Assembly (NCBI GenBank): GCA_024654575.1 | Contig: JANLHG010000005.1 | Coordinates: 65,260-129,259 of the forward strand | Source of the DNA: Patescibacteria group bacterium | GTDB taxonomy: Bacteria; Patescibacteriota; Minisyncoccia; Phycocordibacterales; PALSA-1337 | DNA length: 64,000 nt | Direction: 5' to 3' | Shown here: piece after piece, positions 2,731 to 55,324 of the stretch | How the letters are laid out: each line of letters opens with the position of its first letter | Position numbering within the stretch: the first letter of the stretch is position 1 | Notes under the pieces: model-generated | What the model was told of the DNA's origin: nothing | The model's database searches: none | Seen by the model: the letters and a program-made list of their open reading frames with translations, nothing else | Position numbers and translations under genes: made by a program

Positions 2731-2940
2731 GTTTTAATGGAACCGATGTTCCATAAGTAGTTTTTTCTGCCGACAACCGCCGGGAAGTAAGTCATACTCA
2801 GGACTTAATTGTTGTAATTGGAATTCATACTTTCATTCTTGCACATAATTCCACTAATTATACAAGAACTATCGCTGTTAATACCTATTGAATTTCAATA
2901 GATCAACCGGGACCCGCGAAACGATATATCCGATTCCACT
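2694..2940 (-). ncRNA. Candidate ~240-nt non-coding RNA between holB and frr (own promoter and terminator, no ORF)
   Basis: Near-consensus promoter TTGACA-16nt-TATACT (plus coords 2945..2972) right after holB stop; strong intrinsic terminator at 2694..2730; no ORF >=60 aa either strand; no recognisable tmRNA/RNase P/SRP motifs. Confidence 0.3.
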
Positions 2941-2944
2941 ATAA

Positions 2945-2972
2945 AGTATAGCATACCCAGTTTTATTGTCAA
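2945..2972 (-). promoter_or_regulatory. Sigma70-like promoter TTGACA-16-TATACT on minus strand
   Basis: Minus strand: cTTGACAataaaactgggtatgcTATACTttatag. Confidence 0.5.
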
Positions 2973-2983
2973 GCGTTTAACTA

Positions 2984-3631: not shown

Positions 3632-3664
3632 TAAAAAAGTATAACATATGCTACAATTGCCCGT

Positions 3665-7264: not shown

Positions 7265-8341
7265 ATGCGCTTCGTACAGCCAAACATTTTTTTATACTTT
7301 TTTCTTCTAATTTTGGGAATCAGTGGTTTCTTTTTTGCAGTTATTTGGCCTCAAGCAATAGGATTTTACGCTTTTATCACTTTTGCGGCAGCTGGAGGGC
7401 TTGGTGTAACACTATATATTTACCACACAAAAAAAAATCATAGACAACTTGTTTGCCCAATCGGTTCGAACTGCAATGCCGTCATAACCAGCCGATACTC
7501 TAAATTTTTAGGCGTGCCACTAGAATATTGGGGAATGTTTTATTACTCTATTATTTTTATCACTTATATCATTTTAATTTTCGCTCCTTTTTTATTTTCT
7601 AAGTTTTTTTTGTCTGGATTAGTAATGTTTACCGCCACTGCGTTTCTTTTTTCTTTGTATCTTTTGTTTGTACAAGGATTTCTTTTGCGTCAATGGTGCA
7701 TTTGGTGTCTTCTTTCCGCAACACTCTCTATCGGAATTTTTATTGTTTCTCTTGCAAGTGTTGATTTCGTAGTAGCTTTTTTGGCTGATATAATAATTAT
7801 TATCCAAGCGATTCACTCTTTGGGATTCATACTTGGAATAGGTGGGGCTACAGCAACTTTGTTTCTTTTCTTCAAATTTTTACACGATTTAGATATTAAT
7901 GAAAGCGAATCACAAATACTTAAAGGAATTTCAGAATTGGTATGGTTCGGTCTTGCTCTTACTTTGATAAGTCAGTTTGCCTTTTATATTGTCTCTGCTA
8001 AAACACTAGCTTTTTCTGGCCCATTTTTAGCTCAAACTATTGCCCTTTTTATGGTCGCGATTAGTAATGCTGTTTTAATGATAATTTTTGCGCCATTTTT
8101 AGCAATGATTCCATTTAATGAAATAACAGAAGAACATCGCTATTCCCCTCTTAAATCTCTAAAAAAGCCATTTTTTCTTATAGGAGCAATCGCGCTTTCA
8201 TCTTGGTATTTTTCTTTTTTAATGAATTATTCACCAGAATATGAATTGATTGTTTTGTTTTCAGTATATATTATAGTTATCATAATATCGGTCGGAACAG
8301 CATTGTTTTTGGAAAAAAGTATTAGTAAGGCCAAGATTTAA
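7265..8341 (+). CDS. Vitamin K epoxide reductase (VKOR) family membrane protein with additional C-terminal TM domain
   Basis: Polytopic membrane protein; loop cysteines CPIGSNC and CxxC active site (CIWC) in a TM helix, as in bacterial VKOR/DsbB analogues. Confidence 0.55.
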   Translation: MRFVQPNIFLYFFLLILGISGFFFAVIWPQAIGFYAFITFAAAGGLGVTLYIYHTKKNHRQLVCPIGSNCNAVITSRYSKFLGVPLEYWGMFYYSIIFITYIILIFAPFLFSKFFLSGLVMFTATAFLFSLYLLFVQGFLLRQWCIWCLLSATLSIGIFIVSLASVDFVVAFLADIIIIIQAIHSLGFILGIGGATATLFLFFKFLHDLDINESESQILKGISELVWFGLALTLISQFAFYIVSAKTLAFSGPFLAQTIALFMVAISNAVLMIIFAPFLAMIPFNEITEEHRYSPLKSLKKPFFLIGAIALSSWYFSFLMNYSPEYELIVLFSVYIIVIIISVGTALFLEKSISKAKI

Positions 8342-21737: not shown

Positions 21738-22817
21738 ATGAAAAAGTTAATTGCAGTACTTATCGGACTTCTTATCATCCCAGTGACATTCGCGCAGGCC
21801 GCGGATCAACTTCCGCCGACCTTGCCGATTGATTCGCCGGAAATGCTTATCGCCAACGCGAAACGGATGGTGACAAGCGTTTCGGTTTGGGTGAATTCTC
21901 AAGGGTTCATGCATGATGAAAGCACGGTCACCAGTTTCAACAAGCCGTACACGCCGTCGCTTGAAGGTCAGGCGGATTTCGCAGAAATTCTAAACATCGC
22001 CAGTTTGGCGGAGTTTAATTTCAAAACACGAAATCCGAAGGACTGGATATCACTTTCAGTCGCATTCCGCGGTGTCGTGGGAAATGAGTACGAAAAGCAG
22101 GAGATTGATCTTTTCAATGGCGGGACAGGGTTTAATCTGATTGAAAAGAATGGAACCTATTCTTTGCCGGAACCGCCATTCCTTGTGTCGGTTTATCCGA
22201 ACGGGCAGTTGCCACTTATCATTCCCGGTGCTAATGACGCTGAAGTTGCGTTTTTAGACCATCGTGGACAAACAGTGCAAACGGAATGGTTGGAACAGAT
22301 TGCTCCTGGAGTATTTTTGTTCAACCGCTACTGGGCGGGACAAAAAAATGTTCAGGTCATGGCCACAAGTTACGGCAACGATGGTCAGTCAAGCCGAGCA
22401 GTTTACAACGCTCTCACGGGAGAGCGCGAAGAAATTCGTCAAGCAAAATTGACAGCATCGGCGAGAATGGAAGAAATTGTTATTATCCCGACGGACCAGA
22501 ATACCGTCATGATAAATATGACAGACGCGCAGAGTGCGCGGTCGCTGAAAAATGGCGTGTCGCCACTCGTGCAGGTTCGGTTCACCGAGCCCAAAATGCT
22601 CGCCTTCTATGCAGAAGTCCAAGACGAAGTCGCGAATGGTTTTTGGATTCGGCGTGCCGACACAAATACCTGGGTATATTTTTCGATTACCCAGGGAGCA
22701 TTGGCTGAGGTTTCCGTTCCGGAAGCGGGTGTCTACGACATTGTGATTGACTGGCCGACATTTGGGAAGCAACAGCAGACCTTCGGGGACTACTGCTGTG
22801 GAGAAGGAAAAGGTTAG
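21738..22817 (+). CDS. Secreted hypothetical protein; compositionally foreign (about 55-60% GC body after an AT-rich signal-peptide region)
   Basis: 359 aa with Sec signal peptide (..VTFAQA|AD); GC jumps from about 35% to about 60% near nt 21790; several spurious overlapping ORFs in other frames, as expected for high-GC DNA. Confidence 0.65.
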   Translation: MKKLIAVLIGLLIIPVTFAQAADQLPPTLPIDSPEMLIANAKRMVTSVSVWVNSQGFMHDESTVTSFNKPYTPSLEGQADFAEILNIASLAEFNFKTRNPKDWISLSVAFRGVVGNEYEKQEIDLFNGGTGFNLIEKNGTYSLPEPPFLVSVYPNGQLPLIIPGANDAEVAFLDHRGQTVQTEWLEQIAPGVFLFNRYWAGQKNVQVMATSYGNDGQSSRAVYNALTGEREEIRQAKLTASARMEEIVIIPTDQNTVMINMTDAQSARSLKNGVSPLVQVRFTEPKMLAFYAEVQDEVANGFWIRRADTNTWVYFSITQGALAEVSVPEAGVYDIVIDWPTFGKQQQTFGDYCCGEGKG

Positions 22818-22952
22818 GTTTGGTTGATTAAACACAGAGGGCGCACTTGGATTTACAAATCCTTGTGCGCCTTTTCTTTTTGAAAATCAATTTGATATTC
22901 CTTTAAAAATCTGTTACATTTTATGTTGTTGCTCTAATAGATGTTATAAATT

Positions 22953-23025
22953 GCGCCTATAGCTCAGTTGGTAGAGCAACCGCCTCTTAAGCGGTGGGTC
23001 CATGGTTCGAATCCATGTGGGCGCA
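22953..23025 (+). tRNA. tRNA-Lys (anticodon CTT)
   Basis: gcgccta...tgggcgc-a; anticodon loop ctCTTaa; ggttcgaatcc T-loop. Confidence 0.85.
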
Positions 23026-23026
23026 C

Positions 23027-23076
23027 AGACTTTAAAAAAATATAAACTGCTTTATATTTTTTTAAAGTCTGTGCGA
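23027..23076. terminator. Long perfect palindrome (about 21-bp stem) after tRNA-Lys
   Basis: cagactttaaaaaaatataaa-ctg-ctttatatttttttaaagtctg. Confidence 0.5.
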
Positions 23077-23186
23077 AGCGCAGTGATGTTTTTGTTTGAG
23101 CGAAGCGAAAGGCAAAAACCACGAGCTGGGGTCGCGAGATTTTTTCGTCAGAAAAAATACTTGTGACCACCAGTTAAAAAATATAT

Positions 23187-23270
23187 GCCGGGGTGGCGAA
23201 ATGGCAGACGCACTTGCCTTAGGAGCAAGCGGAGTAATCCATGGAGGTTCGAGTCCTCTCCCCGGCACCA
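23187..23270 (+). tRNA. tRNA-Leu (anticodon TAG), long variable arm, encoded CCA
   Basis: gccgggg.../ccccggc-a-cca; anticodon loop ctTAGga. Confidence 0.85.
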
Positions 23271-23338
23271 GAAGTAACTTGTTCGGAATTAAGAATATTG
23301 ATAATTTGATAAATTTAAATTTTGGAAGAAAAAATAAC

Positions 23339-24382
23339 ATGAACCACCAAAAATCAGAACTTTATTTTTTACTTATTCTACTTTCAGGAATTTTTGTTCT
23401 TGCCTTTTTCATTTTTAAGCCATTTTTCTATGCGTTTATATTAGCAATAGTTTTTGCGACCGTTTTTGGACCATTGCACAAAAAAATACTCACTGTAACG
23501 CGAGAAAAAAGGGGTCTGGCGGCACTCCTCGCCACTCTCTCCGTTCTCGTCGTCGTTGTTGTACCCCTCGCGTTTTTAGGCATACAGATTTTTCAGGAAG
23601 CATCGGGAATCTACTCTTCTCTTGCACAAAACAGCGACGCAACTGATCTTTCTCGCAGTATAGGCGAATACTTACAGAACCTCACCAGATTTTCTCCTGT
23701 GCCGGTAGAGACCTCTTTTGATGTTAGTCAGTACTTAAAACAGGGATTAAGTTTGTTGCTCCAACATCTTGGTCCGCTCTTTGCGAATATTGTGCAAGCA
23801 ATGTTGAGTGTTTTTATATTCCTCGTCACTCTGTATTACTTGTTTAAGGATGGCCACAAACTGAAAAGAGTCGTCGTCACTTTAAGCCCCTTGCAAGATA
23901 TCCACGATGAAACAATTTTTAATAAACTTTCCTTGGCAATTAACTCGGTCATCAGGGGAAATCTTGTAGTGGCACTTGTCCAAGGAACATTAACCGCAAT
24001 CGGGTTTGCCATTTTCGGAATTCCCAATGCGGTGCTTTGGGGTAGTATTGCGACAATAACCGCGTTAATCCCCGGCATTGGAACAGCACTGGTACTCCTT
24101 CCAGCAATTCTCTACCTATACTTCAGCGGAGCGACGCTTTCCGCGGGCGGTCTTCTTCTTTGGGGGATGACGGCAGTGGGGCTCGTTGATAACTTTTTGG
24201 GGCCAAAGCTTATTGAACGAGGAATGCGGCTCCATCCATTTCTTATTCTTCTTTCTATCCTGGGTGGTATTGGATTTTTCGGGCCTCTTGGATTCCTACT
24301 GGGACCGCTTGTTCTTAGCTTGCTATTCGCTTTTCTTGAGATTTATTTTACGATTAGAAAAAATATAAGCGAAATGAATTGA
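23339..24382 (+). CDS. AI-2E family transporter (PerM/YdiK/UPF0118-like); internal segment about 58-63% GC
   Basis: 347 aa polytopic membrane protein matching AI-2E topology. ORF track start 23096 overlaps tRNA-Leu(TAG); ATG 23339 is used instead. GC about 30% for the first about 170 nt and last about 75 nt, about 60% between about 23505 and 24310. Confidence 0.7.
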   Translation: MNHQKSELYFLLILLSGIFVLAFFIFKPFFYAFILAIVFATVFGPLHKKILTVTREKRGLAALLATLSVLVVVVVPLAFLGIQIFQEASGIYSSLAQNSDATDLSRSIGEYLQNLTRFSPVPVETSFDVSQYLKQGLSLLLQHLGPLFANIVQAMLSVFIFLVTLYYLFKDGHKLKRVVVTLSPLQDIHDETIFNKLSLAINSVIRGNLVVALVQGTLTAIGFAIFGIPNAVLWGSIATITALIPGIGTALVLLPAILYLYFSGATLSAGGLLLWGMTAVGLVDNFLGPKLIERGMRLHPFLILLSILGGIGFFGPLGFLLGPLVLSLLFAFLEIYFTIRKNISEMN

Positions 24383-24431
24383 CTTATTTTTATATATGTG
24401 ATACTGTATCATCAGTAGTAGAAAGCACATT

Positions 24432-24776
24432 ATGAAAAAAATTCTAATCGTAGAAGATGACGGGCCTATCTTGAATATCCTTTCAGAACTTCTAAAAGCC
24501 ATTGGACATGAAATCCTGACCGCTGAAAACGCGGAAAAAGGATTGGAAGTGTTTCAAAATAACAAAGACATTGATGTTGTTTTAACAGACGATGCGATGC
24601 CTGTAGAGGGCGACGGGTGTAAACTCGTCGCAAAGATACGTCATCAACTCGGTTTTCAAGGAAAAATCATCATGATGTCTGGGACGATTTGCGAAGAAAT
24701 GGCTTTGACGGTAGGAGCTAACTGCTTCTTGTCAAAACCATTTCTGCCAAAAGAGATTTTTTCCGCAGTTCAATAA
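24432..24776 (+). CDS. Stand-alone response-regulator receiver (CheY-like) domain protein
   Basis: ILIVEDDGPIL...VVLTDDAMPVEGDG...KPF receiver-domain pattern (phospho-acceptor D in LTDDAMP). No output domain, no adjacent kinase. Confidence 0.7.
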   Translation: MKKILIVEDDGPILNILSELLKAIGHEILTAENAEKGLEVFQNNKDIDVVLTDDAMPVEGDGCKLVAKIRHQLGFQGKIIMMSGTICEEMALTVGANCFLSKPFLPKEIFSAVQ

Positions 24777-24798
24777 CATCCACCGATGAGGTGGAAAC

Positions 24799-24835
24799 CA
24801 AGCCAGTTCTCACGAACTGGCTTGACTTTATTTAG
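24799..24835 (+). terminator. Intrinsic terminator (10-bp stem) whose 3' arm overlaps the next promoter's -35 (cTTGACT)
   Basis: caagccagtt-ctcacg-aactggcttg + actttattt. Confidence 0.55.
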
Positions 24836-24899
24836 TATATGTGATAGTATATAAGAGAAGCAGATTTTTGACATAAACATACCAACAGAAGGAAAAAAA

Positions 24900-25613
24900 A
24901 TGAAAGTAAAAACATCGAAACAGGTGGCAACTCCTCCTCCACTGCCACCGACGCCAGTAAATATCCCTCAACAAACAGGATCACAAGGACAACAGTCATC
25001 ACCCCCGGCAAATTTAGTAAAAACATACAAACAGGAGATAGGTTTGAGCATCTTGATTCTCCTGTTGGCGTTCTGCTTCTTCTACTTCCTGTTACCTTGG
25101 ATGAAAAACAAGGGAACTTCGGCACTGCCAAAAGTATTAGAAGTGCAAGCTGGACAAAGTCCATTACCAGCACCTTCCACCGGTAGCAATGGAACAACTT
25201 ACTACATTGTGGACCCCAAAGTTCTCGCTGAATTGATTTCTACAAATGTTGCCGGGGGAATTCATATAACACAAATTGCGACACAAACTGTAGATGGACA
25301 AAGAGCAAATGGTAGCAATACCACCAATACTACTGCTCCATCGACAACAACAACCAATTCACAGCAAGTTGAAAAGCAACCTGTGAATGTAGAAATCCAT
25401 GAACTTGCAAATTGCGGATCATTCTATGAGTTTGAGGTTCCTGACGAACAAAATGTTCGTTGGGATCAAACTGAGGGAAGCAAGATGATCGTCTATGTAG
25501 ACGGCTTCACCTACACTGGAACAGCTACGGCATTCCAGACAGGCAAAAAAATTAAGTTCGTCTCGCAGACAACCTTCCCTTTTAAGATAAGGCTACGGTT
25601 CTACGAGAAATAG
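24900..25613 (+). CDS. Hypothetical membrane-anchored protein with proline-rich N-terminus and Thr/Asn-rich linker
   Basis: PPPLPPTPVNIPQ low-complexity, one TM (LSILILLLAFCFFYFLLPW), then extracytoplasmic domain; no recognised family. Confidence 0.45.
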   Translation: MKVKTSKQVATPPPLPPTPVNIPQQTGSQGQQSSPPANLVKTYKQEIGLSILILLLAFCFFYFLLPWMKNKGTSALPKVLEVQAGQSPLPAPSTGSNGTTYYIVDPKVLAELISTNVAGGIHITQIATQTVDGQRANGSNTTNTTAPSTTTTNSQQVEKQPVNVEIHELANCGSFYEFEVPDEQNVRWDQTEGSKMIVYVDGFTYTGTATAFQTGKKIKFVSQTTFPFKIRLRFYEK

Positions 25614-25751
25614 ATCTTCGCTCATTGCTATGAGCTCACGAAAGGGATTGACTTCGGTCTCTCCCTTTTTTTATTGACTTTTTTACAGATATACTGTATT
25701 ATATAAAGAGATCGATAAACACTTTGATCCTTGAAACCTTAAAATTTACCT

Positions 25752-26630
25752 ATGAAAGTTATTACAAATCTAGTGATATGGGCTTTTACTCTTATCCTAT
25801 TGTTAGCGCTCGAAAATCACATCCTCTGGCCAACCGCCAGTCCTGTGATTAGCATCGTTGTATTGATACTTATACTGTTTGCAACACGAAAGTGGTGGTT
25901 CGTACTTACCGAAGGTAATACGGGAGTTGTGTTATTTGATCCCATGTTCAATCATCTTTCTGAAATTTCAGGTGGGTTGAGTATGAAATTGCCATGGGAG
26001 AGTATATACAAAACCATAGATACTCGCAAGGATATCTTTACAATGAAACATTTAGACGGAGAAAACTATCCGACAGCCAATGGATTCTTGCTTGAAGTAA
26101 AATGGATTGTGGTAATTTCTCCAAATATTGGCCATTTAGTCAATTTTGTGAGATTTAAACCAGAAGATGCTCAAACGCAGGTCCGTGCTCGAGTCACTGC
26201 ATTTCTCAATGCATACATAAATCAACGTAGTGATAATGAAGTGATTGGTGGTATAAAAAAAAGGTCAGTGCCCGGATTTCATACTCTACGAAACGATTTT
26301 GAAAATTTATTTAATGGACAAAATCTCCACCAGATAGAAAAAGATTATGGCATTTGGACTGGCAAACCAGAGGTGTTTGATGTAGACCGCGATGCAGAAT
26401 CGCAAAAAACACGAGCAACTAAAGGAAAAGTAGAAGCTCTTAAAGAAGCAGCTGATTTTCTAGTAGAGAGTTCTAAAGTTAAAGGTAAACCAACACTAAC
26501 ATATAAGGAGGCATTAAAAATCGCCCAAACAGAACACGAGACAAGAAAAGCTGAGAGTATTGATTTGGATGTTTCAGGATTACCAGGTGGAATCCAATCA
26601 TTCATTGTACCAATGAAGGGAAAAACTTAA
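25752..26630 (+). CDS. SPFH/band-7 (prohibitin/stomatin-like) domain membrane protein, paralog 1
   Basis: N-terminal 2 TM; then VVLFDP..LPWESIYKTIDTRKDIF..YPTANGFLLEVKWIVVIS..VRF.PEDAQTQVRARVTAFL..SDNEVIGG, colinear with SPFH core, then alanine-rich coiled-coil tail. Confidence 0.5.
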   Translation: MKVITNLVIWAFTLILLLALENHILWPTASPVISIVVLILILFATRKWWFVLTEGNTGVVLFDPMFNHLSEISGGLSMKLPWESIYKTIDTRKDIFTMKHLDGENYPTANGFLLEVKWIVVISPNIGHLVNFVRFKPEDAQTQVRARVTAFLNAYINQRSDNEVIGGIKKRSVPGFHTLRNDFENLFNGQNLHQIEKDYGIWTGKPEVFDVDRDAESQKTRATKGKVEALKEAADFLVESSKVKGKPTLTYKEALKIAQTEHETRKAESIDLDVSGLPGGIQSFIVPMKGKT

Positions 26631-26720: not shown

Positions 26721-27581
26721 ATGAGACTACTAACAAACTTAATGATATGGATTCTGTCCTTTGTCATCACGGTATCTTTAGCTACTTTAATCATCCCCTC
26801 CGTTGGAGGGGCAATAATCGGTGCCATAATCTGGCTCATTGTCTTTAGCAAGACATTCAAACACTTCGTCGTGTCTGTTGGAAACAACGAGGGTTGGGTT
26901 ATTTTTGACCCACTCTTTAATATGCAACACGAACTCTCATCAGGATGGTGTTGTAAATTCTTTTGGGAAAAATTCTACGAAAAAATTGATATGAGGAAAA
27001 AAATACTTGTAGAAAATAACCCATGCGAAATATACCCAACCATCAACGGAGTAACCATTAAAATAAAATGGATAATACGCTTACAACCACTTAAAGGTTA
27101 CTTGATAAACTTCACTTCTTTTCATCAAAAAAATGTAGAAACTCAATTAAGATCAAAAATAAAAGCGTTTCTGAATGGTTATATTACCACTAGAAGTGAT
27201 GACGAAATTATTGGAGGAAAAAATAAAAATCCAAACAAAGGATTTGAAGAACTCCATAAGGCGTTCGAACTTTTATTTAATGAAAAAAAAATAAACGACT
27301 GGAAAAAGGAATGTGGTATTTGGACTGGTATACCGGACCTTTACGATGCTGATCGTGATGTTGAGGCACAAAAAGCATTGGCAACCAAGCAACTGGCGCT
27401 TGCTCTCGAGGAGACAGCTAAAGCTTTAGTAGAGGCATCTAAAGTAAACAACATTGCCACTATAACCTTTGAAAATGCTTTTGAAAAAGCAATGATTCTT
27501 AATAAATCCACAGCATCTTCAACGGTCAGGTATGAAGGATTACCGCAAGATGCAAAAACACTCATAGTTGGACAAAAATAA
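26721..27581 (+). CDS. SPFH/band-7 domain membrane protein, paralog 2
   Basis: Same architecture and conserved blocks as 25752..26630 (WVIFDPLFN, YPTINGVTIKIKWII, RSKIKAFLNGYITTRSDDEIIGG); own TTGACA promoter and terminator. Confidence 0.5.
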   Translation: MRLLTNLMIWILSFVITVSLATLIIPSVGGAIIGAIIWLIVFSKTFKHFVVSVGNNEGWVIFDPLFNMQHELSSGWCCKFFWEKFYEKIDMRKKILVENNPCEIYPTINGVTIKIKWIIRLQPLKGYLINFTSFHQKNVETQLRSKIKAFLNGYITTRSDDEIIGGKNKNPNKGFEELHKAFELLFNEKKINDWKKECGIWTGIPDLYDADRDVEAQKALATKQLALALEETAKALVEASKVNNIATITFENAFEKAMILNKSTASSTVRYEGLPQDAKTLIVGQK

Positions 27582-27641
27582 AGAAAAACAAAAAGGTGTC
27601 GCACAAAGCGACGCCTTTTATTTATCCCGCCTTGGCGGGAT

Positions 27642-27899
27642 TTATACCCCGATAGTTCCTTTAATTATATTAATTATCCCATAAGCACCAAACATAATAA
27701 CCATACCAACAAGTCCCCAGAGAATATGCTGACTACCTGTCACCCTAGCAGTCGGGTCATTTGATTTTACAAAATACTCAAAAACACCATAAAGAAAGAA
27801 AATGAGAGCTAAAGCAAACATCAAGCCAATTGCCGGATTGACTATGTAGTCAGCAATTTTTGTTAAAACTTGAGTAATAGCTGGATTTTCTTTAGACAC
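27642..27899 (-). CDS. Small 2-TM protein, paralog family member 1 (VirB2/TrbC-like topology)
   Basis: 85 aa; GTG start overlaps upstream TAG (TAGTG); shares ..hVxYh...(G/K)..h.WGhhGhhhhhu.WGLhN core with four neighbours. Confidence 0.45.
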   Translation of the reverse strand: MSKENPAITQVLTKIADYIVNPAIGLMFALALIFFLYGVFEYFVKSNDPTARVTGSQHILWGLVGMVIMFGAYGIINIIKGTIGV

Positions 27900-28279
27900 T
27901 AAATAGTTTGATTAATTCTTAATACATTAGGAATTTGATTTTGGTCAACAATATTATTCAAACCAAATGTTTGAACTAAGATATTTACCAATCCCCAAAT
28001 GGAAAGAATAACAAACAAACCTATCACTCCCCATTTTATATGGCTCTTACCAACTTCTTTATCATCTTCATTACCTGCAACTACATATTTTACGATTGCG
28101 TATATAAGCCAAACTACTGCAACAGAAATAAGTATAGGAATAATGGCGTTAAGAATAGTATTAACCTTTCCAAATAAACTATTTGCATCAAGAACACGAC
28201 TATAGGTAGGTACTACCTGTTGAGCGAAAGCTATGATAGGTAAAACAAACAAAGAAACTGCCGTGATTATTTTTTTCAT
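27899..28279 (-). CDS. Small secreted 2-TM protein, paralog 2 (VirB2/TrbC-like)
   Basis: 126 aa; Sec signal peptide MKKIITAVSLFVLPIIAFAQQ; ..AVVWLIYAIVKYVVAGNEDDKEVGKSHIKWGVIGLFVILSIWGLVNILVQTFGLNN. Confidence 0.45.
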   Translation of the reverse strand: MKKIITAVSLFVLPIIAFAQQVVPTYSRVLDANSLFGKVNTILNAIIPILISVAVVWLIYAIVKYVVAGNEDDKEVGKSHIKWGVIGLFVILSIWGLVNILVQTFGLNNIVDQNQIPNVLRINQTI

Positions 28280-28382
28280 TTTTATTTATCCCGCCTTGGC
28301 GAGATTGATTACTAATAATTAATAAATTACTTATTTTCATTATACCAACACCTAATTATATAACAATAGCGAGGTGTGGATA

Positions 28383-28823
28383 CTAAGGTCTATAAAAAGT
28401 ATCTTGAAGGTCAAGTTTGTAGCCACCTAAATTGTCAGGACTATTAACACCACCTGTTTGATTAAGTACAGAACTTGGACTATCAACACCACCTGTTTGA
28501 GTAAAATTACCTCCACAAGCCGATACACCACTCTGACTCCCTGGAGTTACTCCGGGTAATTGATTATTAAAACCAAATGTCTTCACAAGAACATTAACCA
28601 AACCCCACACAGAAAACATGACAAAAAGACCGATAATACCCCACAAAATAAGACTTCGTGCTTCCTCTTTTTTTTCCTGCACAAAAATATATTTAACAAT
28701 ACCAAAAATAAATACCACTAAAGCCACAGAAAAAAGAAGTGGGATGGTATAACCAAGATAGGTATTTACGAGACACATGACATCTTTGAGAGTACTAAGT
28801 TGTGGTGTGGCGACATTATTCAT
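28383..28823 (-). CDS. Small 2-TM protein, paralog 3, with Gly/Ser-rich C-terminal tail
   Basis: 146 aa; ..FSVALVVFIFGIVKYIF....EARSLILWGIIGLFVMFSVWGLVNVLVKTFGFNN then GVTPGSQSG..TGGV repeats. Confidence 0.45.
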   Translation of the reverse strand: MNNVATPQLSTLKDVMCLVNTYLGYTIPLLFSVALVVFIFGIVKYIFVQEKKEEARSLILWGIIGLFVMFSVWGLVNVLVKTFGFNNQLPGVTPGSQSGVSACGGNFTQTGGVDSPSSVLNQTGGVNSPDNLGGYKLDLQDTFYRP

Positions 28824-28834
28824 ATTTTTTATAA

Positions 28835-29098
28835 TTAACCTTTAATTTGTTTAATTGTAGCATCTATTACTCCAGCGATCACTGAAGCTCCTAAAAGCAC
28901 GGCAGTGCCGACCACTGTCCATAAAAATGTACTCTTTGCATCTGTCAGTTTTTTTGGATCGCCTCGAGCAGTCACAAAAAGAAAACCAGAGTATATAATA
29001 AATACTACTGCCACAGGCAAACCAATTTGAAGAACCAAACCTAGTATTGAATTAATAAGTTCACTAATCGTTTTTACTTGAAGAGGGTTTTCAATCAT
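28835..29098 (-). CDS. Small 2-TM protein, paralog 4
   Basis: 87 aa; LPVAVVFIIYSGFLFVTARGDPKKLTDAKSTFLWTVVGTAVLLGASVIAGVI. Confidence 0.45.
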   Translation of the reverse strand: MIENPLQVKTISELINSILGLVLQIGLPVAVVFIIYSGFLFVTARGDPKKLTDAKSTFLWTVVGTAVLLGASVIAGVIDATIKQIKG

Positions 29099-29505
29099 TG
29101 TTTCTCTATATTATAGTATTTTTCTGGTTCTTTTAAAAGTGCCCCAGTGATAGTATGCACAATAAGCCAAGCAGAAAACATTAGAATAAGTCCTACGACG
29201 ACTATTCTAAAAATTTTATGAGCTTGAGCTAATTTTCCAGTATCTCCTGATGCTGTCATATATAAAAATCCAGCATAAGCAAAGGATACAGTAGCAAGTG
29301 GAACCGCCAAGTAAATTATAAACTGAATAAGGCCGTTTATCCCATTAATGAGGTCATTAAAACCACAATCTGTATCACAAGGGATCAATCCTCCATCGCC
29401 GAACGGGGCAAAACCAGGGCCTAGGACGTATAAAATTAAAGTAAACATAAAATTATTGTGTAATAAGATTATTAATTTGATTTGAACCCCGTGTAATGGC
29501 CTCAC
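29095..29505 (-). CDS. Small 2-TM protein, paralog 5 (start probably at internal Met, about 29448)
   Basis: AVPLATVSFAYAGFLYMTASGDTGKLAQAHKIFRIVVVGLILMFSAWLIVHTI; the 5' 53 nt of the ORF-track model overlaps the upstream substrate-binding protein gene, so a shorter model is likely. Confidence 0.4.
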   Translation of the reverse strand: MRPLHGVQIKLIILLHNNFMFTLILYVLGPGFAPFGDGGLIPCDTDCGFNDLINGINGLIQFIIYLAVPLATVSFAYAGFLYMTASGDTGKLAQAHKIFRIVVVGLILMFSAWLIVHTITGALLKEPEKYYNIEKQ

Positions 29506-30694
29506 TAATTATCTCCTTTCCACTGACAATATTTTCAACCATGCTTTGAAAAATCATGGATGTATCATTAGCCGAAGGGTCAAGCCATCCTTTAGCTATA
29601 AGTGCTGAATCATAAAATATAGAAAGATAAGGGTCGGCAGGTTTTACCGTGAGCATATCTCTTCTAACTGGAGGTAAGTAAGTTAATTCTGTCCATTTTA
29701 ATAAAGCTGATTGTCCAGATAAAATAGAGAGTACGCTATATGCCGTGTTGAAATTGGGAGAACTGCGAGGAAAAGCAAAACCCAATATCGTACCAAACGT
29801 GGCTTTAATTTGAGCATTTTTTGATTGAGGCATAGGGGCTACATCAAAATTAAGCTGAGGATTTTTTGTTCTGATATCTGTAATTTCACTAGCAAAACCA
29901 AAATATAAAGCGAGGTCTCCAGAAATAAAGAAATTTTTTGATTGAGGTAAAGCCCTGTTCCAAGAATATGTTTCTTTGGTCGGATTAGAAAATTGAGTAT
30001 AAAAATCAAGTGTCGACTCCGCGGATTTTGATGAAAGTCCAATTACTGAATTCCCTGCCTGCATAAGAAGGGATAGTATTATTTCTTTAGCATGAGTGAC
30101 ATTTCTAAACTCTCCAAAAGCTAACCCACTTTGACTTATATTTTTAGCATTATCTTTATTTGTCACTTTTTTAGAAAGTGTTGTTACTTCATCCCAAGTA
30201 CTTGGATAACGAGCAAAACCAGCTCCAGATAAAGTGTCTCTGTTCCAATACATCACTAATGGGTCAAGGGCAAATGGGATAGCTAAAATACCATTATCAG
30301 TCAAATACAACTCTGCTTCTTGAATAAAGGTATTCTTAAAATCCCTCTGAGAAAAGGAAGTATAAGGGATAGCTATCAGTTTATCTTTTTCTTTAAGAAT
30401 CAAGTCCTGGGGCAAAATTATAGCATCTGGACCCTTTCCTGTAGCCAATGCTTCCACAAACTCTTGATGAAAAGTGTCTGGTCGCTTTTGTACATATGAA
30501 ATATTTAGAGGAGTAGCTTGTTCTAAATTAAAATCAGTAAGAAATTTATTAAAAAGATCCTCTTTTATAGTTCCCCACAACACGATAGTCGGAACATCCT
30601 GCGAACTATTACCTTTTAGACTAGCAAAAACAACCACACCTATTATTATGAAAAAAATGAAAATACCAGTTAATACAATTTGAAAATTAGACAT
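29453..30694 (-). CDS. Membrane-anchored extracellular solute-binding protein (family 1, sugar-type ABC substrate-binding protein-like), orphan
   Basis: N-terminal TM anchor; PDAIILPQDL, ALDPLVMYWNRD, YFGFASE blocks typical of MalE-like solute-binding proteins; no adjacent permease or ATPase genes. Confidence 0.55.
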   Translation of the reverse strand: MSNFQIVLTGIFIFFIIIGVVVFASLKGNSSQDVPTIVLWGTIKEDLFNKFLTDFNLEQATPLNISYVQKRPDTFHQEFVEALATGKGPDAIILPQDLILKEKDKLIAIPYTSFSQRDFKNTFIQEAELYLTDNGILAIPFALDPLVMYWNRDTLSGAGFARYPSTWDEVTTLSKKVTNKDNAKNISQSGLAFGEFRNVTHAKEIILSLLMQAGNSVIGLSSKSAESTLDFYTQFSNPTKETYSWNRALPQSKNFFISGDLALYFGFASEITDIRTKNPQLNFDVAPMPQSKNAQIKATFGTILGFAFPRSSPNFNTAYSVLSILSGQSALLKWTELTYLPPVRRDMLTVKPADPYLSIFYDSALIAKGWLDPSANDTSMIFQSMVENIVSGKEIISEAITRGSNQINNLITQ

Positions 30695-31253
30695 TGTGTT
30701 TATTAAATATTAGCCCATAATGATGTTCCCCAGCTGATATTGATGAATCAAAATCAAAACCAGCTTTTTCAAATAATGATTTTGTAATTGCTTCTGGAAC
30801 AAGTGTTTTTGGACCAAGTGGACTTTTGTCTGACCAATCAACAATCAAAACTTTTCCTCCCGGTTTAAGAATACGCTTTATTTCCAAACAAAAATTATCT
30901 TTATGTTCAACCTGAAAAAGAATATTAGAAGCAATAGCTTTGTCAATTGAACCATCTCTCAAGCGAGTACCTCCTATGTTTTCAACATCTCCTAAAATCA
31001 CTTCTACATTAAAAAGATGTTCGTGAACTGCGTTGGTTTTTAATTTTTCTAATAAATCTTTTTGTACTTCTATAGCATAAACTTTGCCCGCTCCTCCAAC
31101 TTTTCTAGCTGATTCAATTGTGTAAAAACCACTCCCAGCACCCAGGTCAGCCACTTGCATCCCGTGTCCTATTTTAAATTGAGTAACATTTTTTTCTGGG
31201 TCACTAAAAAACATGTGGTAATTATAGCATAAAATAAAAACAACCCCCTGCAT
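30687..31253 (-). CDS. Class I SAM-dependent methyltransferase
   Basis: VADLGAGSGFYT (motif I), KVYAIEVQ (motif II), ILKPGGKVLIVDW (post-II/III). Confidence 0.7.
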   Translation of the reverse strand: MQGVVFILCYNYHMFFSDPEKNVTQFKIGHGMQVADLGAGSGFYTIESARKVGGAGKVYAIEVQKDLLEKLKTNAVHEHLFNVEVILGDVENIGGTRLRDGSIDKAIASNILFQVEHKDNFCLEIKRILKPGGKVLIVDWSDKSPLGPKTLVPEAITKSLFEKAGFDFDSSISAGEHHYGLIFNKHNV

Positions 31254-31610: not shown

Positions 31611-31901
31611 CTAAAATATTGCCATTTTTAATCCTAAACCACCTACAACTTTCTTCAAAAAAGATAATGTAGGATTTGCCCGTCCAGCTTCAAAACGAGC
31701 TAATACCGATTGTGCAATACCAATACGTTCTGCAAGTTCTCTTTGAGTCAAACCCTGTTTTCCTCGTGCTTTAATAATAGCTCTAATAATACTGAATTCG
31801 AATTCAAGATCTTCATAAGCCTTTTTAAATCCAGGCTTTTTCATAAGATCTTTATGAATCTCGTCAAAGGGAATAAGTTTTATATTATCTTTAGTTTTCA
31901 T
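31611..31901 (-). CDS. higA: HTH XRE-family antitoxin (HigA-like)
   Basis: GLTQRELAERIGIAQSVLARFEAGRANPTLSFLKKV: cro/C1 HTH; directly downstream of HigB-like toxin. Confidence 0.65.
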   Translation of the reverse strand: MKTKDNIKLIPFDEIHKDLMKKPGFKKAYEDLEFEFSIIRAIIKARGKQGLTQRELAERIGIAQSVLARFEAGRANPTLSFLKKVVGGLGLKMAIF

Positions 31902-31925
31902 ATTTATATGATACCATATATGGTA

Positions 31926-32237
31926 TCAAGAATGCAAGAGTTTTAAGCGATTTCGGGTGGTACTCAAATCTTTGAGTTTTAACTTTTGAGTTTTTTTATT
32001 AATAGCATGCAGTAAAACTATCTGATCTTCATAAAAAGTGTAGAAAATTCTAATATTTTGAAAACTTGAAATTCTTAGTTCATAAAGATTCTTTTCAATC
32101 TTTTTACTATATGGCATTGATAAATGGTATTCTTCAATAGATAAAAGTTTTATAGTGCTAGAAACTTTTGCACTTACCATATCCTCTAGAGAATTGAAAA
32201 ACAATTTAATATCGGGGTGGAAATAAAAAACTTTCAT
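31926..32237 (-). CDS. higB: RelE/ParE-superfamily toxin, HigB/Gp49-like
   Basis: 103 aa; ..NLYELRISSFQNIRIFYTFYEDQIVLLHAINKKTQK.. pattern of HigB/phage Gp49 family; toxin upstream of HTH antitoxin. Confidence 0.6.
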   Translation of the reverse strand: MKVFYFHPDIKLFFNSLEDMVSAKVSSTIKLLSIEEYHLSMPYSKKIEKNLYELRISSFQNIRIFYTFYEDQIVLLHAINKKTQKLKLKDLSTTRNRLKLLHS

Positions 32238-46229: not shown

Positions 46230-48737
<2,508 letters not shown>

Positions 48738-48741
<4 letters not shown>

Positions 48742-49220
48742 GGTGTCGGTGCAAAAATATCCATCATATTTTCTTGTATAGTAAATGTTTGTGTAAATAA
48801 ACTAGTATTCCAAGAAATTTTAACCTCTATCATCGCATTATTTTCTACTGTATCATCAATATTAATAGTACGAGTAAAACCAGATTTAATTCCTCCATTA
48901 CCATAACCATACTGACCATTACTGCTATTATAAAGTAATTCTCCAGAATTACTTTTTGTGCCTGCAATAGTATCAATCATACAATCTGTATTTAAACACA
49001 AATCAAGTTCTTCAAGCCAAGATTTTGATGCTAAAAAATTACCATCTCTTACACTTCTAATATACTCAACAGCATCTTGAGCTAAATAATATGCTGTAAC
49101 TTGGTCTTTAGCATAAAGTGCAGATTGCACACCTCTATGAGCAATAGTAAGAGGACCTGTGACAGCCAACATCATTATCGCAACGGCTACTAATGTTTCT
49201 ATAAGTGTAAATCCTTTCAT
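48738..49220 (-). CDS. Type IV minor pilin (prepilin N-terminal methylation motif)
   Basis: MKGFTLIETLVAVAIMMLAVTG: G|FTLIE class III signal. Confidence 0.6.
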
Positions 49221-49221
49221 A

Positions 49222-49785
49222 TTAAAAATCTAAAGCTCTCTGAGTTATTGTTGTTTGTAAATTAAAATTTGTTTGATTTTTCAGCTTATCAAGCCCCGCG
49301 TAACCTTGAATTATCATAAAAATTTTAGGTTGCAAACTATCTCCCGGAGTAGTACCTGTCGAAACAAACTCAACATTGGTAATTTTCACTTCCGGAGCAG
49401 TGATGGGGATAGCTATAGAAGCTCCTTTCACTTTTTCAAATTCAATTCTATTTTGAGCTTCATTAAATATATATTTTGATGTCACGGATTCATAACCATT
49501 ACTAAATGCAACACCCTTTCCATCCGGGTCTACTACATAATCTTTACCTATTCTCAAATTTCTTGACATATCTTCCATAGCAAAATTGAGATTATTAATA
49601 ACTGATTTAAGAGCTTGAGTTTTTTTAGCTCCGCTAATAATTGAAAGCAATGCACCCGCTGCTACCAAAACCACAATACTAAAAACTGCTAAAGAAACCA
49701 TAATTTCAATTAATGAAAATCCTTTATTTTTATTTAAATAATTATTGACCATTTTGAATTGATATTTGACCTGTCTCTTGTACAA
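49222..49785 (-). CDS. Type IV minor pilin (start likely internal Met about 49752)
   Basis: NKGFSLIEIMVSLAVFSIVVLVAAGALLSI prepilin motif. Confidence 0.55.
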   Translation of the reverse strand: MYKRQVKYQFKMVNNYLNKNKGFSLIEIMVSLAVFSIVVLVAAGALLSIISGAKKTQALKSVINNLNFAMEDMSRNLRIGKDYVVDPDGKGVAFSNGYESVTSKYIFNEAQNRIEFEKVKGASIAIPITAPEVKITNVEFVSTGTTPGDSLQPKIFMIIQGYAGLDKLKNQTNFNLQTTITQRALDF

Positions 49786-50356
49786 TTATATCCTTTATCA
49801 CACCATTTCCTGAAGCCTTTACTTGAATTCGAGCATAACCGTAATAGTTTCCAGAAGTAGCATTAATGACAGCTGATGGGTCTGGACGATTAAATGTAAT
49901 ATCTAAAAATGTATCATCACAAACTTCCGTAAGACCCCCTATGTTACCAATACTACTACCCACACAAAACTTTTCTACAACAATCCCTTTTTTTAATATA
50001 AAAGTATTCACTTTCGTATCATTACCACTAGTTCCTCCATCATATTTACCATCTCCAGTACTTATTCCCGTATCTTTATTCGCGTTATTTAAATCTTGCT
50101 TATCAGTAAATACAACAAAAGATTTATCATTACTACTATCAAAATGAACTCCGTAAGCCACATTAAAATCATTCAAATTCCCTTTAACATTTATTCCGTA
50201 GGTTTGTGTTTCGCGAATGGTGAGTGCTATCTCATAAGCCAAATTTGTTAAAATAATTCCTCCATTAAAAGATTGATATTTCGCTAACACAAGTCCTGTG
50301 ACCACTGCAAATATGGAAATTGAGACTAAAAGCTCTATTAGAGTAAAACCTTTCAT
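49742..50356 (-). CDS. Type IV minor pilin (PilV/FimT-like)
   Basis: MKGFTLIELLVSISIFAVVTGLVLAKY. Confidence 0.6.
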   Translation of the reverse strand: MKGFTLIELLVSISIFAVVTGLVLAKYQSFNGGIILTNLAYEIALTIRETQTYGINVKGNLNDFNVAYGVHFDSSNDKSFVVFTDKQDLNNANKDTGISTGDGKYDGGTSGNDTKVNTFILKKGIVVEKFCVGSSIGNIGGLTEVCDDTFLDITFNRPDPSAVINATSGNYYGYARIQVKASGNGVIKDIIVQETGQISIQNGQ

Positions 50357-50359
50357 ACT

Positions 50360-51097
50360 CTATATTATAACATTAATATGAAAAAAGAATGTTATCAGCA
50401 TACCTAGGATAAGATATGGAGCAAAAGGTATTTCTGTCTTCATACCAATATGTTTACCAAAAATAGAAGAAATTCCTATCCACAAAAGTCCAGCTACTGC
50501 ACCAATCCAAAAACCCAAAATTATTGAAGAAACTCCTTCAGTAAACCCCATAAAAAAACCTATACCTATAGCCAATTTTGCATCACCAAAACCCATCCAT
50601 TTACCTTTTGATAAATACCATAATAAAAAGAATGGAGTGAAAAGAATTGGACCAGCTAATAAATCAAAAATGCTAGTATAATAAAAAAGTTTTAAAGCAC
50701 TTAAAGCGATAAAAGTGTAAACTAACCCATCTGGAATAATTTTATGTCGTAAATCATAAACAGTGATAATTATAAGAATAGAAAAAATAGTTAAATAATA
50801 TGGAAAAAATTCTATTGGGAAAAAAGCAACATATGATGCAAAAATAAAACCCGTAAAAAGTTCAACCAAAGGATACTGTAGAGAAATCTTCGCTTTACAT
50901 TGAGAACATCTACCTTGCAATAATAAAAAACTTAATATTGGGAAAAGTTCATACCACTCCAGTTTTTTACCACAAGAAAAACATCCTGACCGTCCAGTTA
51001 TGGATACACCAGTGTTATATCTCAAAATAACAACATTAAGAAAAGAACCGATTATGATACCAAAAATAAAAAAAGATGTGAGATAAAAAAAATCCAT
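50360..51097 (-). CDS. pilD: Prepilin peptidase (A24 family)
   Basis: N-terminal CxxC...CxxC zinc-binding (RSGCFSCGKKL...CSQCKAKI), DLRHKIIPDG and downstream Asp-containing TM; 8 TM. Confidence 0.8.
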   Translation of the reverse strand: MDFFYLTSFFIFGIIIGSFLNVVILRYNTGVSITGRSGCFSCGKKLEWYELFPILSFLLLQGRCSQCKAKISLQYPLVELFTGFIFASYVAFFPIEFFPYYLTIFSILIIITVYDLRHKIIPDGLVYTFIALSALKLFYYTSIFDLLAGPILFTPFFLLWYLSKGKWMGFGDAKLAIGIGFFMGFTEGVSSIILGFWIGAVAGLLWIGISSIFGKHIGMKTEIPFAPYLILGMLITFFFHINVII

Positions 51098-51098
51098 T

Positions 51099-51509
51099 TT
51101 ACGGCTTCACACGATGATTACCTGTTGCAGAAGTACCACACTGAGTAAGAATATTTGTATTATTTGTATTTTCAAGAGTGGCACTCATACAATAATCTTT
51201 CGTTCCATTTAGTACATATGAATAGACAACATGTGTAGAAGGGTCAGTGGGAATTGAAGAAATAAATATACCGAGATCTGTTCCCGTTCCACAACCTGTA
51301 GCTTCAGTAATATTGAGTGCATTAGGATATTGTTTACAAGCATCAAAATATGATTCAAGAGCAAGTTGAAGTTGAGCAACATCCGAAAGTCGTTTACCAT
51401 CTCTAGAATTTGCCCTAACACTATTTAAAGAAGTGAGTACAATAGCACTCAGAATACCAATGATGGCGATGACCACCAAAAGCTCAATAAGTGTAAAACC
51501 TTTTTTCAT
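51099..51509 (-). CDS. Type IV major-pilin-like protein, paralog A
   Basis: MKKGFTLIELLVVIAIIGILSAIVL + C-terminal Cys pair. Confidence 0.7.
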   Translation of the reverse strand: MKKGFTLIELLVVIAIIGILSAIVLTSLNSVRANSRDGKRLSDVAQLQLALESYFDACKQYPNALNITEATGCGTGTDLGIFISSIPTDPSTHVVYSYVLNGTKDYCMSATLENTNNTNILTQCGTSATGNHRVKP

Positions 51510-51524
51510 ACTACAAGTATATCA

Positions 51525-51992
51525 TTAGTTACATTGTGTTGCACCAACAGTAGTGTGAGCAGCGGTAGCAGAACCAGTAAGAGCTGTGTAAGGAGTACCG
51601 TCTACTGTAGTTCCACGTGAAGTATTTTTATCATCTACACACCACGCCGTATTTCCGGGAGTGCCTTGAAGTGTTGCTGCTACAGAATATTCATTTTGGG
51701 AATCACCACAATCTATTTCTGTTGCTGTAGGATAAGATGATGTTTGAAGAAGTGAATAAAGACCTGAGTTGTCATCTGACGCAACGGCACATAAACCTGC
51801 ATAAGTATCATCTCTATCTACATAAACACTTGTTGCTGAACGAAGATTAGCAAGCTGACTTTTTACTTTTGCATCATTACCCTTTTTCCTACCTTGATTC
51901 AAAGCTCCAAGCACAATAGAAGCCAATATGCCTATGATAGCGATAACAACAAGAAGCTCGATGAGTGTGAATCCTTTATTTTTATTAATCAT
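51525..51992 (-). CDS. Type IV major-pilin-like protein, paralog B
   Basis: NKGFTLIELLVVIAIIGILASIVL; C-terminal disulfide Cys (CGD...C...CN). Confidence 0.7.
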   Translation of the reverse strand: MINKNKGFTLIELLVVIAIIGILASIVLGALNQGRKKGNDAKVKSQLANLRSATSVYVDRDDTYAGLCAVASDDNSGLYSLLQTSSYPTATEIDCGDSQNEYSVAATLQGTPGNTAWCVDDKNTSRGTTVDGTPYTALTGSATAAHTTVGATQCN

Positions 51993-52021
51993 ATTGATGA
52001 TATTAAAACTATAATTAATTA

Positions 52022-53587: not shown

Positions 53588-53595
53588 TCAATAAA

Positions 53596-54045
53596 CTAGT
53601 TGGCTGGACAAACTGTAGCTCCTGCCACCATCGCGGTAGTAACTTTTTTAGATACTCCAGTACTATCCACACACCAATAAGCTGCAGTTCCTCCTAAAGT
53701 CGTTGGTAATTGAGCTTGTGCTGCCCAAACCAACGCACCACTACCAGCGGTATGGGTTGTAGTATTAGTATTAATACCAGTTAAAATTGCTTGAACATTT
53801 GCATCAGCAGAGGCCCATGTATTGTTTGTTGTAAATAAATTAGCGAAACTATTTGAATTATTACTTGCGTAAATCTCAGCTTGAGACCTTAAGCTTGAAA
53901 GTTCGCCTTGAACCGCTGCATCTCTTCCTTTATTTCTCGCAGTACTCAAAGAGGCAAGAACAATGGATGACAAAATACCAATAATAGCGATGACCACCAA
54001 CAGTTCAATAAGTGTAAAACCTGATTTTTTATTCTTTTTGTTCAT
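53596..54045 (-). CDS. Type IV major-pilin-like protein, paralog C
   Basis: KSGFTLIELLVVIAIIGILSSIVLASL; Ala/Thr-rich globular domain; C-terminal CxxxxxxxC. Confidence 0.7.
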   Translation of the reverse strand: MNKKNKKSGFTLIELLVVIAIIGILSSIVLASLSTARNKGRDAAVQGELSSLRSQAEIYASNNSNSFANLFTTNNTWASADANVQAILTGINTNTTTHTAGSGALVWAAQAQLPTTLGGTAAYWCVDSTGVSKKVTTAMVAGATVCPAN

Positions 54046-54114
54046 TTTAATAAATGATTAATAATTTAATAAAGTCATTATAACAAACATACAATAATAA
54101 ACACAAGTGGATAA

Positions 54115-55320: not shown

Positions 55321-55324
55321 AATT

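Follow-up and report, generated by a model that had tools for sequence, protein, structure and literature searches.

Five tandem genes for VirB2-like proteins of family PF18895 in a conserved operon with a solute-binding protein and a methyltransferase in Patescibacteria

The five-gene array and its protein family

An open reading frame (ORF) listing of the 25–32.5 kb region in a 64,000-nucleotide stretch of a Patescibacteria group bacterium chromosome (contig JANLHG010000005.1, assembly GCA_024654575.1; the whole stretch is referred to here as the window) revealed five successive minus-strand ORFs which span 27642–29448 and encode small membrane proteins matching the pilin family of type IV secretion systems (T4SS). 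The genes were numbered pilins 1–5 in transcription order along the minus strand and are preceded by genes for a methyltransferase and a solute-binding protein (SBP). The features of the operon are listed below, with bit scores for the Pfam families PF18895 (T4SS_pilin) and PF04956 (TrbC/VirB2) and for the NCBIfam model NF045849 (pilin-like conjugal transfer protein), for which the cut-offs used were the gathering scores of 26.6, 27.9 and 40 bits, respectively. Promoter and terminator were called by sequence scans and inspection of the sequence.

30687..31253, minus strand: small class I S-adenosylmethionine-dependent methyltransferase (Pfam Methyltransf_31/11/25), first gene of the conserved operon
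29453..30694, minus strand: membrane-anchored SBP-like protein (PF13416, PF01547; family 1, carbohydrate/MalE type) with an N-terminal transmembrane (TM) anchor
29095..29448, minus strand: pilin 1, 117 aa; PF18895 37.9 bits; PF04956 18.2 bits, E = 0.003
28835..29098, minus strand: pilin 2, 87 aa; PF18895 50.4 bits; PF04956 30.7 bits; start overlaps the pilin 1 stop (ATGA)
28383..28823, minus strand: pilin 3, 146 aa; FGFNN motif; Gly/Ser/Thr-rich C-terminal tail; PF18895 34.1 bits
28339..28380, minus strand: predicted internal promoter (promoter scan), TCCACA followed by the -35 element TTGTTA and the extended -10 element TGgTATAAT
28280..28301, minus strand: 22-nt hairpin repeat CGCCAAGGCGGGATAAATAAAA, copy 1, abutting the ATG of pilin 4
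27899..28279, minus strand: pilin 4, 126 aa; Sec signal peptide; FGLNN motif; PF18895 49.1 bits; NF045849 45.1 bits
27642..27899, minus strand: pilin 5, 85 aa; GTG start; no signal peptide; PF18895 23.6 bits
27616..27637, minus strand: 22-nt hairpin repeat CGCCAAGGCGGGATAAATAAAA, copy 2, 5 nt past the pilin 5 stop
27588..27612, minus strand: terminator-like hairpin and T-run after pilin 5, which closes the operon and faces a convergent gene ending at 27581

The original prediction for this locus, made from the sequence, had described five tandem paralogous genes for two-TM proteins, and this description was borne out. Hydropathy analysis of 30 proteins, relatives included, showed two strongly hydrophobic helices with a short charged loop between them in all five pilins, which share 25–55% pairwise identity with pilins 3 and 4 the most similar pair (55%). 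A clear Sec-type signal peptide, predicted for one protein, was found in pilin 4 only (MKKIITAVSLFVLPIIAFA followed by QQ), and the orthologues of pilins 1–4 in more distant relatives carry one as well. The AlphaFold2 model of pilin 4 consisted of a signal helix and a helical hairpin with helices at residues 32–67 and 71–104 and a core predicted local distance difference test score (pLDDT) of 83–91. The FG(L/F)NN motif was also present in the two proteins for which it had been proposed, pilins 3 and 4, but neither protein ends there as had been claimed; the predicted Gly/Ser/Thr-rich tail is on pilin 3. Pilin 1 has a conserved Cys...Cys loop ahead of helix 1.

The genes of the operon are closely packed. 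The last 8 nt of the methyltransferase gene overlap the SBP start, and the ATG of pilin 1 at 29448 sits 4 nt past the SBP stop. An ORF-finder call placed the pilin 1 start at an alternative GTG at 29505 (29095–29505, 136 aa), and this extension corresponds to the 3' end of the SBP gene in another frame. The GTG start was rejected and ATG 29448 is the likelier one, because the extension is not kept in the two closest relatives and the start codon is absent in the closest of these. Pilins 1 and 2 overlap by 4 nt (ATGA), pilins 2 and 3 are spaced by 11 nt and pilins 4 and 5 share a single base (TAGTG), so that the only real intergenic gap in the array is the 103 nt ahead of pilin 4, which contains the promoter. 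With these overlaps and one terminator-like hairpin for the whole array, the genes are not each separately punctuated, as had been stated.

Relatives also have a widened gap before pilin 4, in which the same composite combines TCC(A/C)CA with a TTG-type -35 element and an extended -10 element. Of 60 related loci, 31 have the pattern TCC(A/C)CA-N27-32-TAnMMT upstream of a pilin gene, and in 27 of these it stands before the type-4 gene; its background frequency is 0.025 per kb. This conserved promoter composite supports the placement of pilins 4 and 5 in a separate, probably stronger, transcription unit. The same two genes are bracketed by the direct, exact repeat CGCCAAGGCGGGATAAATAAAA, a GC hairpin with an A-rich tail, of which there are two exact copies in 64 kb where none is expected by chance. 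Neither copy is found in relative L001 (86% identical), in which the corresponding sites read ...TATAAAAATG and TAAATAAAGG. The repeat looks like a recent palindromic insertion of about 20 nt at (A)TAAA sites, or like an mRNA-end element.

All five proteins matched PF18895 (E-values of 6e-13, 2.4e-13, 1.9e-9, 2.8e-8 and 5.5e-5), with scores above the gathering score in four of the five (49.1, 34.1, 50.4 and 37.9 bits). The remaining protein, pilin 5, scored just under the cut-off (23.6 bits, E = 5.5e-5), and its orthologues in L003, L005 and L006 match the family without the mark "weak". PF04956 was passed by pilin 2 alone (30.7 bits), while pilins 1 and 5 scored 18.2 and 13.8 bits and pilins 3 and 4 had no match at E < 1. 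By these scores pilin 2 is the copy nearest to canonical TrbC/VirB2, and the array as a whole is best described as VirB2-like but not PF04956 proper. NF045849 also matched all five proteins (E from 1e-4 to 6e-12; 2.9e-8 for pilin 5), and its cut-off was passed by pilin 4 only (45.1 bits). The pilin 4 gene is already labelled "pilin" by PGAP, and an NCBI entry "pilin [Patescibacteria group bacterium]" from a metagenome-assembled genome (MAG) is 100% identical to its protein.

A profile check against VirB2/TrbC had been set beforehand. Alignments of each positional orthogroup were compared using hhalign with verified VirB2/TrbC sequences from plasmids of mating pair formation (MPF) type MPF_T, all of them annotated genes adjoining virB3, and column-reversed alignments served as the control. 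Similarity was found for pilin 1 (49% probability) and pilin 2 (66%) at E of about 1e-4 (6e-5 for pilin 2), with less than 1% for the reversed control. The five orthogroups were mutually homologous, with profile-profile probabilities of 89–99.8%, and pilin 5 matched pilins 3 and 4 at about 99%. The predicted likeness to TrbC/VirB2 pilins was therefore upheld by Pfam, NCBIfam and profile-profile comparison. The family is very large, with 15,608 cluster representatives retrieved at E <= 1e-3 in an exhaustive profile search.

As the original prediction had named holins as an example of an unrelated family to which the proteins could belong, these were considered as well. None of the five had a match at E < 1 to a holin or other unrelated Pfam family; with the neighbourhood made up of housekeeping genes, a holin identity was rejected. 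An identity as type IV pilus (T4P) pilins was rejected since the N-terminal methylation motif PF07963 was absent from all five. The Pfam scan of the window covered 75 non-overlapping ORFs of at least 70 aa, minus five short ones (70–97 aa), and PF07963 matched eight other window ORFs (those at 49222, 49742, 51099, 51525, 53596 and 62607 among them), seven of which lie in the type IV pilus cluster at 48.7–54 kb.

Conservation of the methyltransferase-SBP-pilin operon

The layout of gyrA, methyltransferase, SBP and five small genes recurred on contigs that carry relatives of pilin 4, at identities from 86% to about 43%. Nearly all of the 25 small genes of five relatives matched PF18895, some of them weakly, and three had no Pfam match on record. 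Orthology was strictly positional: in each of the five relatives, every window pilin had its best local alignment score with the gene that occupies the equivalent place. The ratio of nonsynonymous to synonymous substitution rates (dN/dS) against the closest relative was 0.09–0.15 for the pilins, close to that of the SBP (0.08) and methyltransferase (0.10), with GyrA at 0.04. Judged by these ratios and the E-values given above, the PF18895 matches are not due to chance. In L003 and L007, which are more distant, pilin 4 showed the highest conservation of all the pilins. Position-3 orthologues carried long Gly/Ser/Thr-rich tails of differing sequence in L003, L006 and L007 and a shorter one in L001, and no such tail in L005. 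Taken together, the comparison indicates that the array is old and constrained rather than hypervariable.

An alignment of the SBP was then used to scan species-representative genomes, which yielded 529 relatives, and the best 80 of these were analyzed. These 80 were MAGs labelled Taylorbacteria, Zambryskibacteria, Wolfebacteria, Nomurabacteria, Paceibacterota, Parcubacteria or Patescibacteria group; many of them bear the label "uncultured Candidatus Saccharibacteria", which was taken as a generic name. Loci with at least 2.6 kb of sequence downstream of the SBP were considered evaluable (n = 56), and pilin ORFs were found directly 3' of the SBP gene in every one (56/56). There were 3–8 pilins per locus (mode 5), most commonly in the order 1-2-3-4-5, and the additional copies were mostly of type 4. 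A Campbellbacteria locus had two small genes only after the SBP. In 72 of the 80 loci a methyltransferase homologue lay directly upstream of the SBP gene and in its orientation, and in 59 gyrA was upstream. The adjoining SBP had been predicted to be membrane-anchored, as is the case, and to be an orphan, which it is not: since pilins follow it in all evaluable loci and the methyltransferase-SBP order is so widely kept, the SBP is a conserved operon partner of the pilins and not an accidental neighbour.

The solved structures nearest to the SBP are sugar-binding proteins, with 4r9f first (5e-12) followed by MalE and its relatives. There was no match to an ABC permease or ATPase (BPD_transp, ABC_tran) in the scanned window ORFs or in the annotated flanks of relatives, and a classical SBP-dependent ABC importer was rejected as no such partner was found. 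SBP-pilin fusion proteins were absent among the top 120 SBP relatives. The methyltransferase had no specific NCBIfam equivalog.

Many of the top relatives of pilin 4 were single polypeptides with 2, 3, 5, 6 or 8 tandem hairpin modules. These multi-module proteins (P0121, P0122, P0123, P0134, P0183 and P0185, all from outside the window) carry a single signal peptide at the N terminus, and short polar linkers join their modules. Known here from protein sequences alone, they have the look of genuine "poly-pilin" fusions as opposed to read-through artefacts, because no internal start or signal sequences were present. Such fusions are not mentioned in PMC10633639, PMC12102498 or PMC12857230, and no search was aimed at them.

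A Cys-x(n)-Cys pair just ahead of helix 1 was kept in the position-1 pilins of the window, L001, L003, L005 and L007, and type-3 modules keep a C-x7-9-C. These pairs imply extracytoplasmic disulfides, which a VKOR-family protein encoded in the window (7265–8341) could form.

Surroundings of the operon

The window is a stretch of housekeeping Patescibacteria chromosome with genes for ClpB, IF-2, GyrA, release factor, LigA, a Mur ligase, ParB and others. The array is flanked by the methyltransferase and SBP genes upstream and by convergent genes of unknown function downstream, with no virB3 or virB4 adjoining. No relaxase or other genes of an integrative and conjugative element (ICE) were present in the window.

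The genes convergent on the pilin operon are two plus-strand paralogues, at 25752–26630 (292 aa) and 26721–27581 (286 aa), whose products are 38% identical and have two N-terminal TM helices each and no Pfam or NCBIfam match. Homologues stand at the same place in L001, L003 and L007. The 286-aa protein may resemble an SPFH/band-7 domain. A homologue search using it returned just one relative, and its AlphaFold2 model, from a 3-sequence alignment, had a pLDDT of 41 and was unusable. Just beyond this pair are genes for a proline-rich TM protein of 237 aa (24900–25613, plus strand) and a response regulator. The G+C content at 22001–26000 is 0.42–0.44, compared with about 0.33 elsewhere, and this stretch, which may be horizontally acquired DNA, holds genes for a 359-aa protein without a family (21738–22817), an AI-2E family transporter (23096–24382) and the response regulator.

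Between gyrA and the methyltransferase gene the window carries a Gp49/HigB-like toxin and HTH_3 antitoxin pair (31611–32237, minus strand), which breaks the otherwise conserved adjacency of these two genes and is not present in L001. A similar toxin-antitoxin pair lies upstream of gyrA in L006 (2117–2748). In L001, the closest relative, bAvd, a reverse-transcriptase fragment and a SocA/Panacea gene lie between release factor and gyrA (2481–3676). The bAvd gene and reverse-transcriptase fragment are likely a diversity-generating retroelement, and the window has nothing equivalent at that place.

A type IV pilus cluster is found on the minus strand at about 48200–63150, some 20 kb from the array. 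Its main genes are as follows.

60019–61137, minus strand: PilM
56778–58505, minus strand: PilB
55325–56386, minus strand: PilT-like ATPase
54115–55320, minus strand: PilC
52022–53587, minus strand: unannotated 521-aa protein
50360–51097, minus strand: prepilin peptidase

The cluster also encodes a PilO-like protein, a response regulator and several N-methyl pilins, and an IS200-type Y1 transposase (61880–62554) is located between PilM and another N-methyl pilin.

Interpretation and comparison with known systems

Much of bacterial diversity belongs to the Patescibacteria, yet little is known of the means by which they adhere to host cells and live off them. We consider it probable, with moderate confidence, that the five proteins are anciently diverged VirB2/TrbC-like pilin subunits (PF18895) of the Patescibacterial T4SS, which would form a surface filament or conduit. 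Each pilin would insert into the membrane as a two-helix hairpin, its termini outside the cell and its short charged loop on the cytoplasmic side. Pilin 4 would enter the membrane by way of its cleavable Sec signal peptide, as would the orthologues of pilins 1–4 in relatives. We infer that the subunits are extracted by a T4SS with VirB4, whose genes would lie at another place in the genome, and polymerised by it into a filament or conduit used for host-cell contact or exchange. Pilin 4, which would be translationally coupled to pilin 5, is probably the major subunit, because it has its own conserved promoter, is the best conserved in distant relatives and is the type that has been amplified. 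Pilins 1–3 would be cotranscribed with the methyltransferase and SBP-like genes and probably serve as minor subunits or as specialised ones; pilin 1 would have a disulfide loop, and pilin 3 its Gly/Ser/Thr tail on the filament exterior. The SBP would most plausibly be a ligand- or host-glycan-binding component beside the filament.

Published work provides the setting for this interpretation. In S. epibionticum, a series of predicted pilins encoded among the T4SS genes is essential (Wang et al. 2023, PMC10633639), and the six genes SEML1_0014–0019 of strain ML1 were assigned to PF18895 (Table S2 of that study). VirB2-like pilins were reported in 1,948 VirB4-positive assemblies by Quiñonero-Coronel et al. 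(2025, PMC12102498), with 441 Patescibacterial arrays of 2–11 pilin genes at a mean identity of 25% and a maximum of 54%; VirB2 clusters flagged as not near VirB4 are also found in their Table S3. Two of the genomes from which our loci were drawn, Zambryskibacteria RIFOXYC1_FULL_39_10 (source of L050) and Athens0714_16 (source of L068), are listed there as class Paceibacteria and VirB4-positive (Table S1, PMC12102498), and both L050 and L068 carry the same methyltransferase-SBP-pilin operon. Neither an SBP nor a methyltransferase partner is mentioned in PMC10633639, PMC12102498 or PMC12857230, and a search of the accessible literature found no further publications on such Patescibacterial pilin arrays.

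Several observations weigh against a T4SS filament. The Pfam-scanned ORFs of the window included no VirB4, VirD4, VirB6 or VirB3; that the window holds no T4SS ATPase had been noted in the original prediction, and the only secretion ATPases present are PilB and PilT of the type IV pilus operon. No VirB4-type gene was found within 10 kb in seven Pfam-annotated loci (L001, L003, L005–L007, L094 and L095), and the absence of VirB4 nearby holds for these seven, since the 6 kb on either side of the 80 remaining loci were not scanned for it. In the hhalign comparison pilins 3–5 reached only 0.6–8% against VirB2/TrbC, so their likeness to canonical VirB2 is transitive only. Foldseek of the pilin 4 model against the PDB gave no significant match, as expected of a bare hairpin. 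The linkage to an SBP and a methyltransferase has no T4SS precedent and is not explained by a pilus model. Finally, pilus formation in Patescibacteria is described as a possibility in a recent review, none having yet been seen on any member (PMC12857230).

The main alternative is a fixed membrane hetero-oligomer of the hairpin proteins with the anchored SBP, co-opted from a VirB2-like ancestor for T4SS-independent uptake or sensing, with no pilus. The invariant position of the SBP immediately before the pilins, the class-wide methyltransferase-SBP-pilin order and the lack of an adjacent virB4 in the seven annotated loci all fit such a complex; five positionally fixed paralogues under purifying selection also resemble a stoichiometric complex, and the family contains single polypeptides in which 2–8 hairpin modules follow one signal peptide. 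We nevertheless regard it as unlikely. Filament formation is the only known role of homologous pilins, the homologous array of Saccharimonadia sits among T4SS genes, lacks an SBP and is essential, and there is no energising ATPase or permease near the operon. Copy numbers of 2 to 8, as seen across the class, are easier to reconcile with a polymer than with a complex of fixed composition. A pilus would also allow for concatenated modules, as both ends of VirB2-type pilins are on the filament exterior in the F- and T-pilus structures.

A broader proposal, which we advance only tentatively and hold to be rather doubtful, is that the methyltransferase, the SBP and the fixed VirB2-like set constitute a distinct organelle across class Paceibacteria. 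In one form of it, the SBP would be physically attached to a VirB2-type filament and serve as its adhesin or ligand receptor, filling the place of VirB5 or PrgB, which are missing. In the other, the hairpin proteins would have been repurposed as a membrane conduit that works without the T4SS and is supplied by the SBP. If true, either form would give these biosynthetically poor bacteria a new means of binding to hosts or of obtaining material from them.

For the VirB2 paralogues of Bartonella and Anaplasma, antigenic or host-range variation has been proposed, and a variable surface family had been suggested in the original prediction for the present array. On such a reading the copies would diversify fast and differ in number from strain to strain. 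The low identity between paralogues, the range in copy number across distant species with extra genes mostly of type 4, and the adaptation to different hosts suggested for pilin arrays (PMC12102498) are in keeping with this. It is contradicted by the strict one-to-one positional orthologues in five relatives and by purifying selection on the pilins at dN/dS values like those of the SBP and methyltransferase, and the array has no silent cassettes and no recombination repeats but the one 22-nt hairpin pair; we therefore judge it quite improbable. A last pair of readings, in which the genes encode holins, immunity proteins or other unrelated small membrane proteins, or else minor type IV pilus pilins, would match the small two-TM form and the presence of a type IV pilus operon 20 kb away, but both were effectively refuted by the family searches already described and by a housekeeping context that is conserved across species and free of phage genes.

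Tandem VirB2-like pilin arrays in Patescibacteria are already published (Wang 2023; Quiñonero-Coronel 2025), so that this locus adds one more case and the sighting of pilins alone adds little. New here are the positionally conserved pilin set, the purifying selection upon it and its operon with a sugar-type SBP and a methyltransferase, away from virB4. In the one Patescibacterial species tested, the T4SS and its pilin array were essential. This conserved operon is the part of most use, and the comparative result argues against simple antigenic variation.

Like the array of S. epibionticum ML1, the window array consists of tandem PF18895 proteins that are divergent in sequence but structurally alike two-helix pilins, in a monoderm, ultrasmall, host-dependent phylum, and its within-array identity of 25–55% is comparable to the published Patescibacterial values given above. 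The S. epibionticum array lies inside a T4SS cluster, where it adjoins genes for VirB4 and a VirB6-like protein, and is without an SBP, whereas the window array is unlinked to virB4 and belongs to a methyltransferase-SBP-pilin operon beside gyrA which is conserved across class Paceibacteria.

The pilins resemble TrbC/VirB2 of diderm MPF_T systems (A. tumefaciens VirB2, RP4 TrbC) in their order of helix, charged loop and helix and in the signal peptide of some copies. They differ in that four of the five fail PF04956, no virB3 or virB4 adjoins them, the bacterium that encodes them is a monoderm, nothing points to cyclisation or C-terminal processing and three copies are without a leader peptide. 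A further likeness is to Mbov_0395 and MMCAP2_0565 of Mycoplasma ICEs (NF045849), which are small hairpin proteins of an MPF_FATA-type system in a wall-less or monoderm host. The Mbov_0395 family is a single gene in a mobile conjugative element, in contrast to the five chromosomal paralogues in a housekeeping context found here. The NF045849 matches suggest that VirB2-like proteins exist in MPF_FATA-type systems of wall-less monoderms, and they bear on the published question of whether the Patescibacterial pilin was co-opted from diderm systems or not. As in the T4SSs of Bartonella and Anaplasma, several divergent VirB2 copies stand side by side; whereas variation is the role proposed for those copies, the pilins of the window keep their positional orthologues from species to species and evolve under purifying selection.

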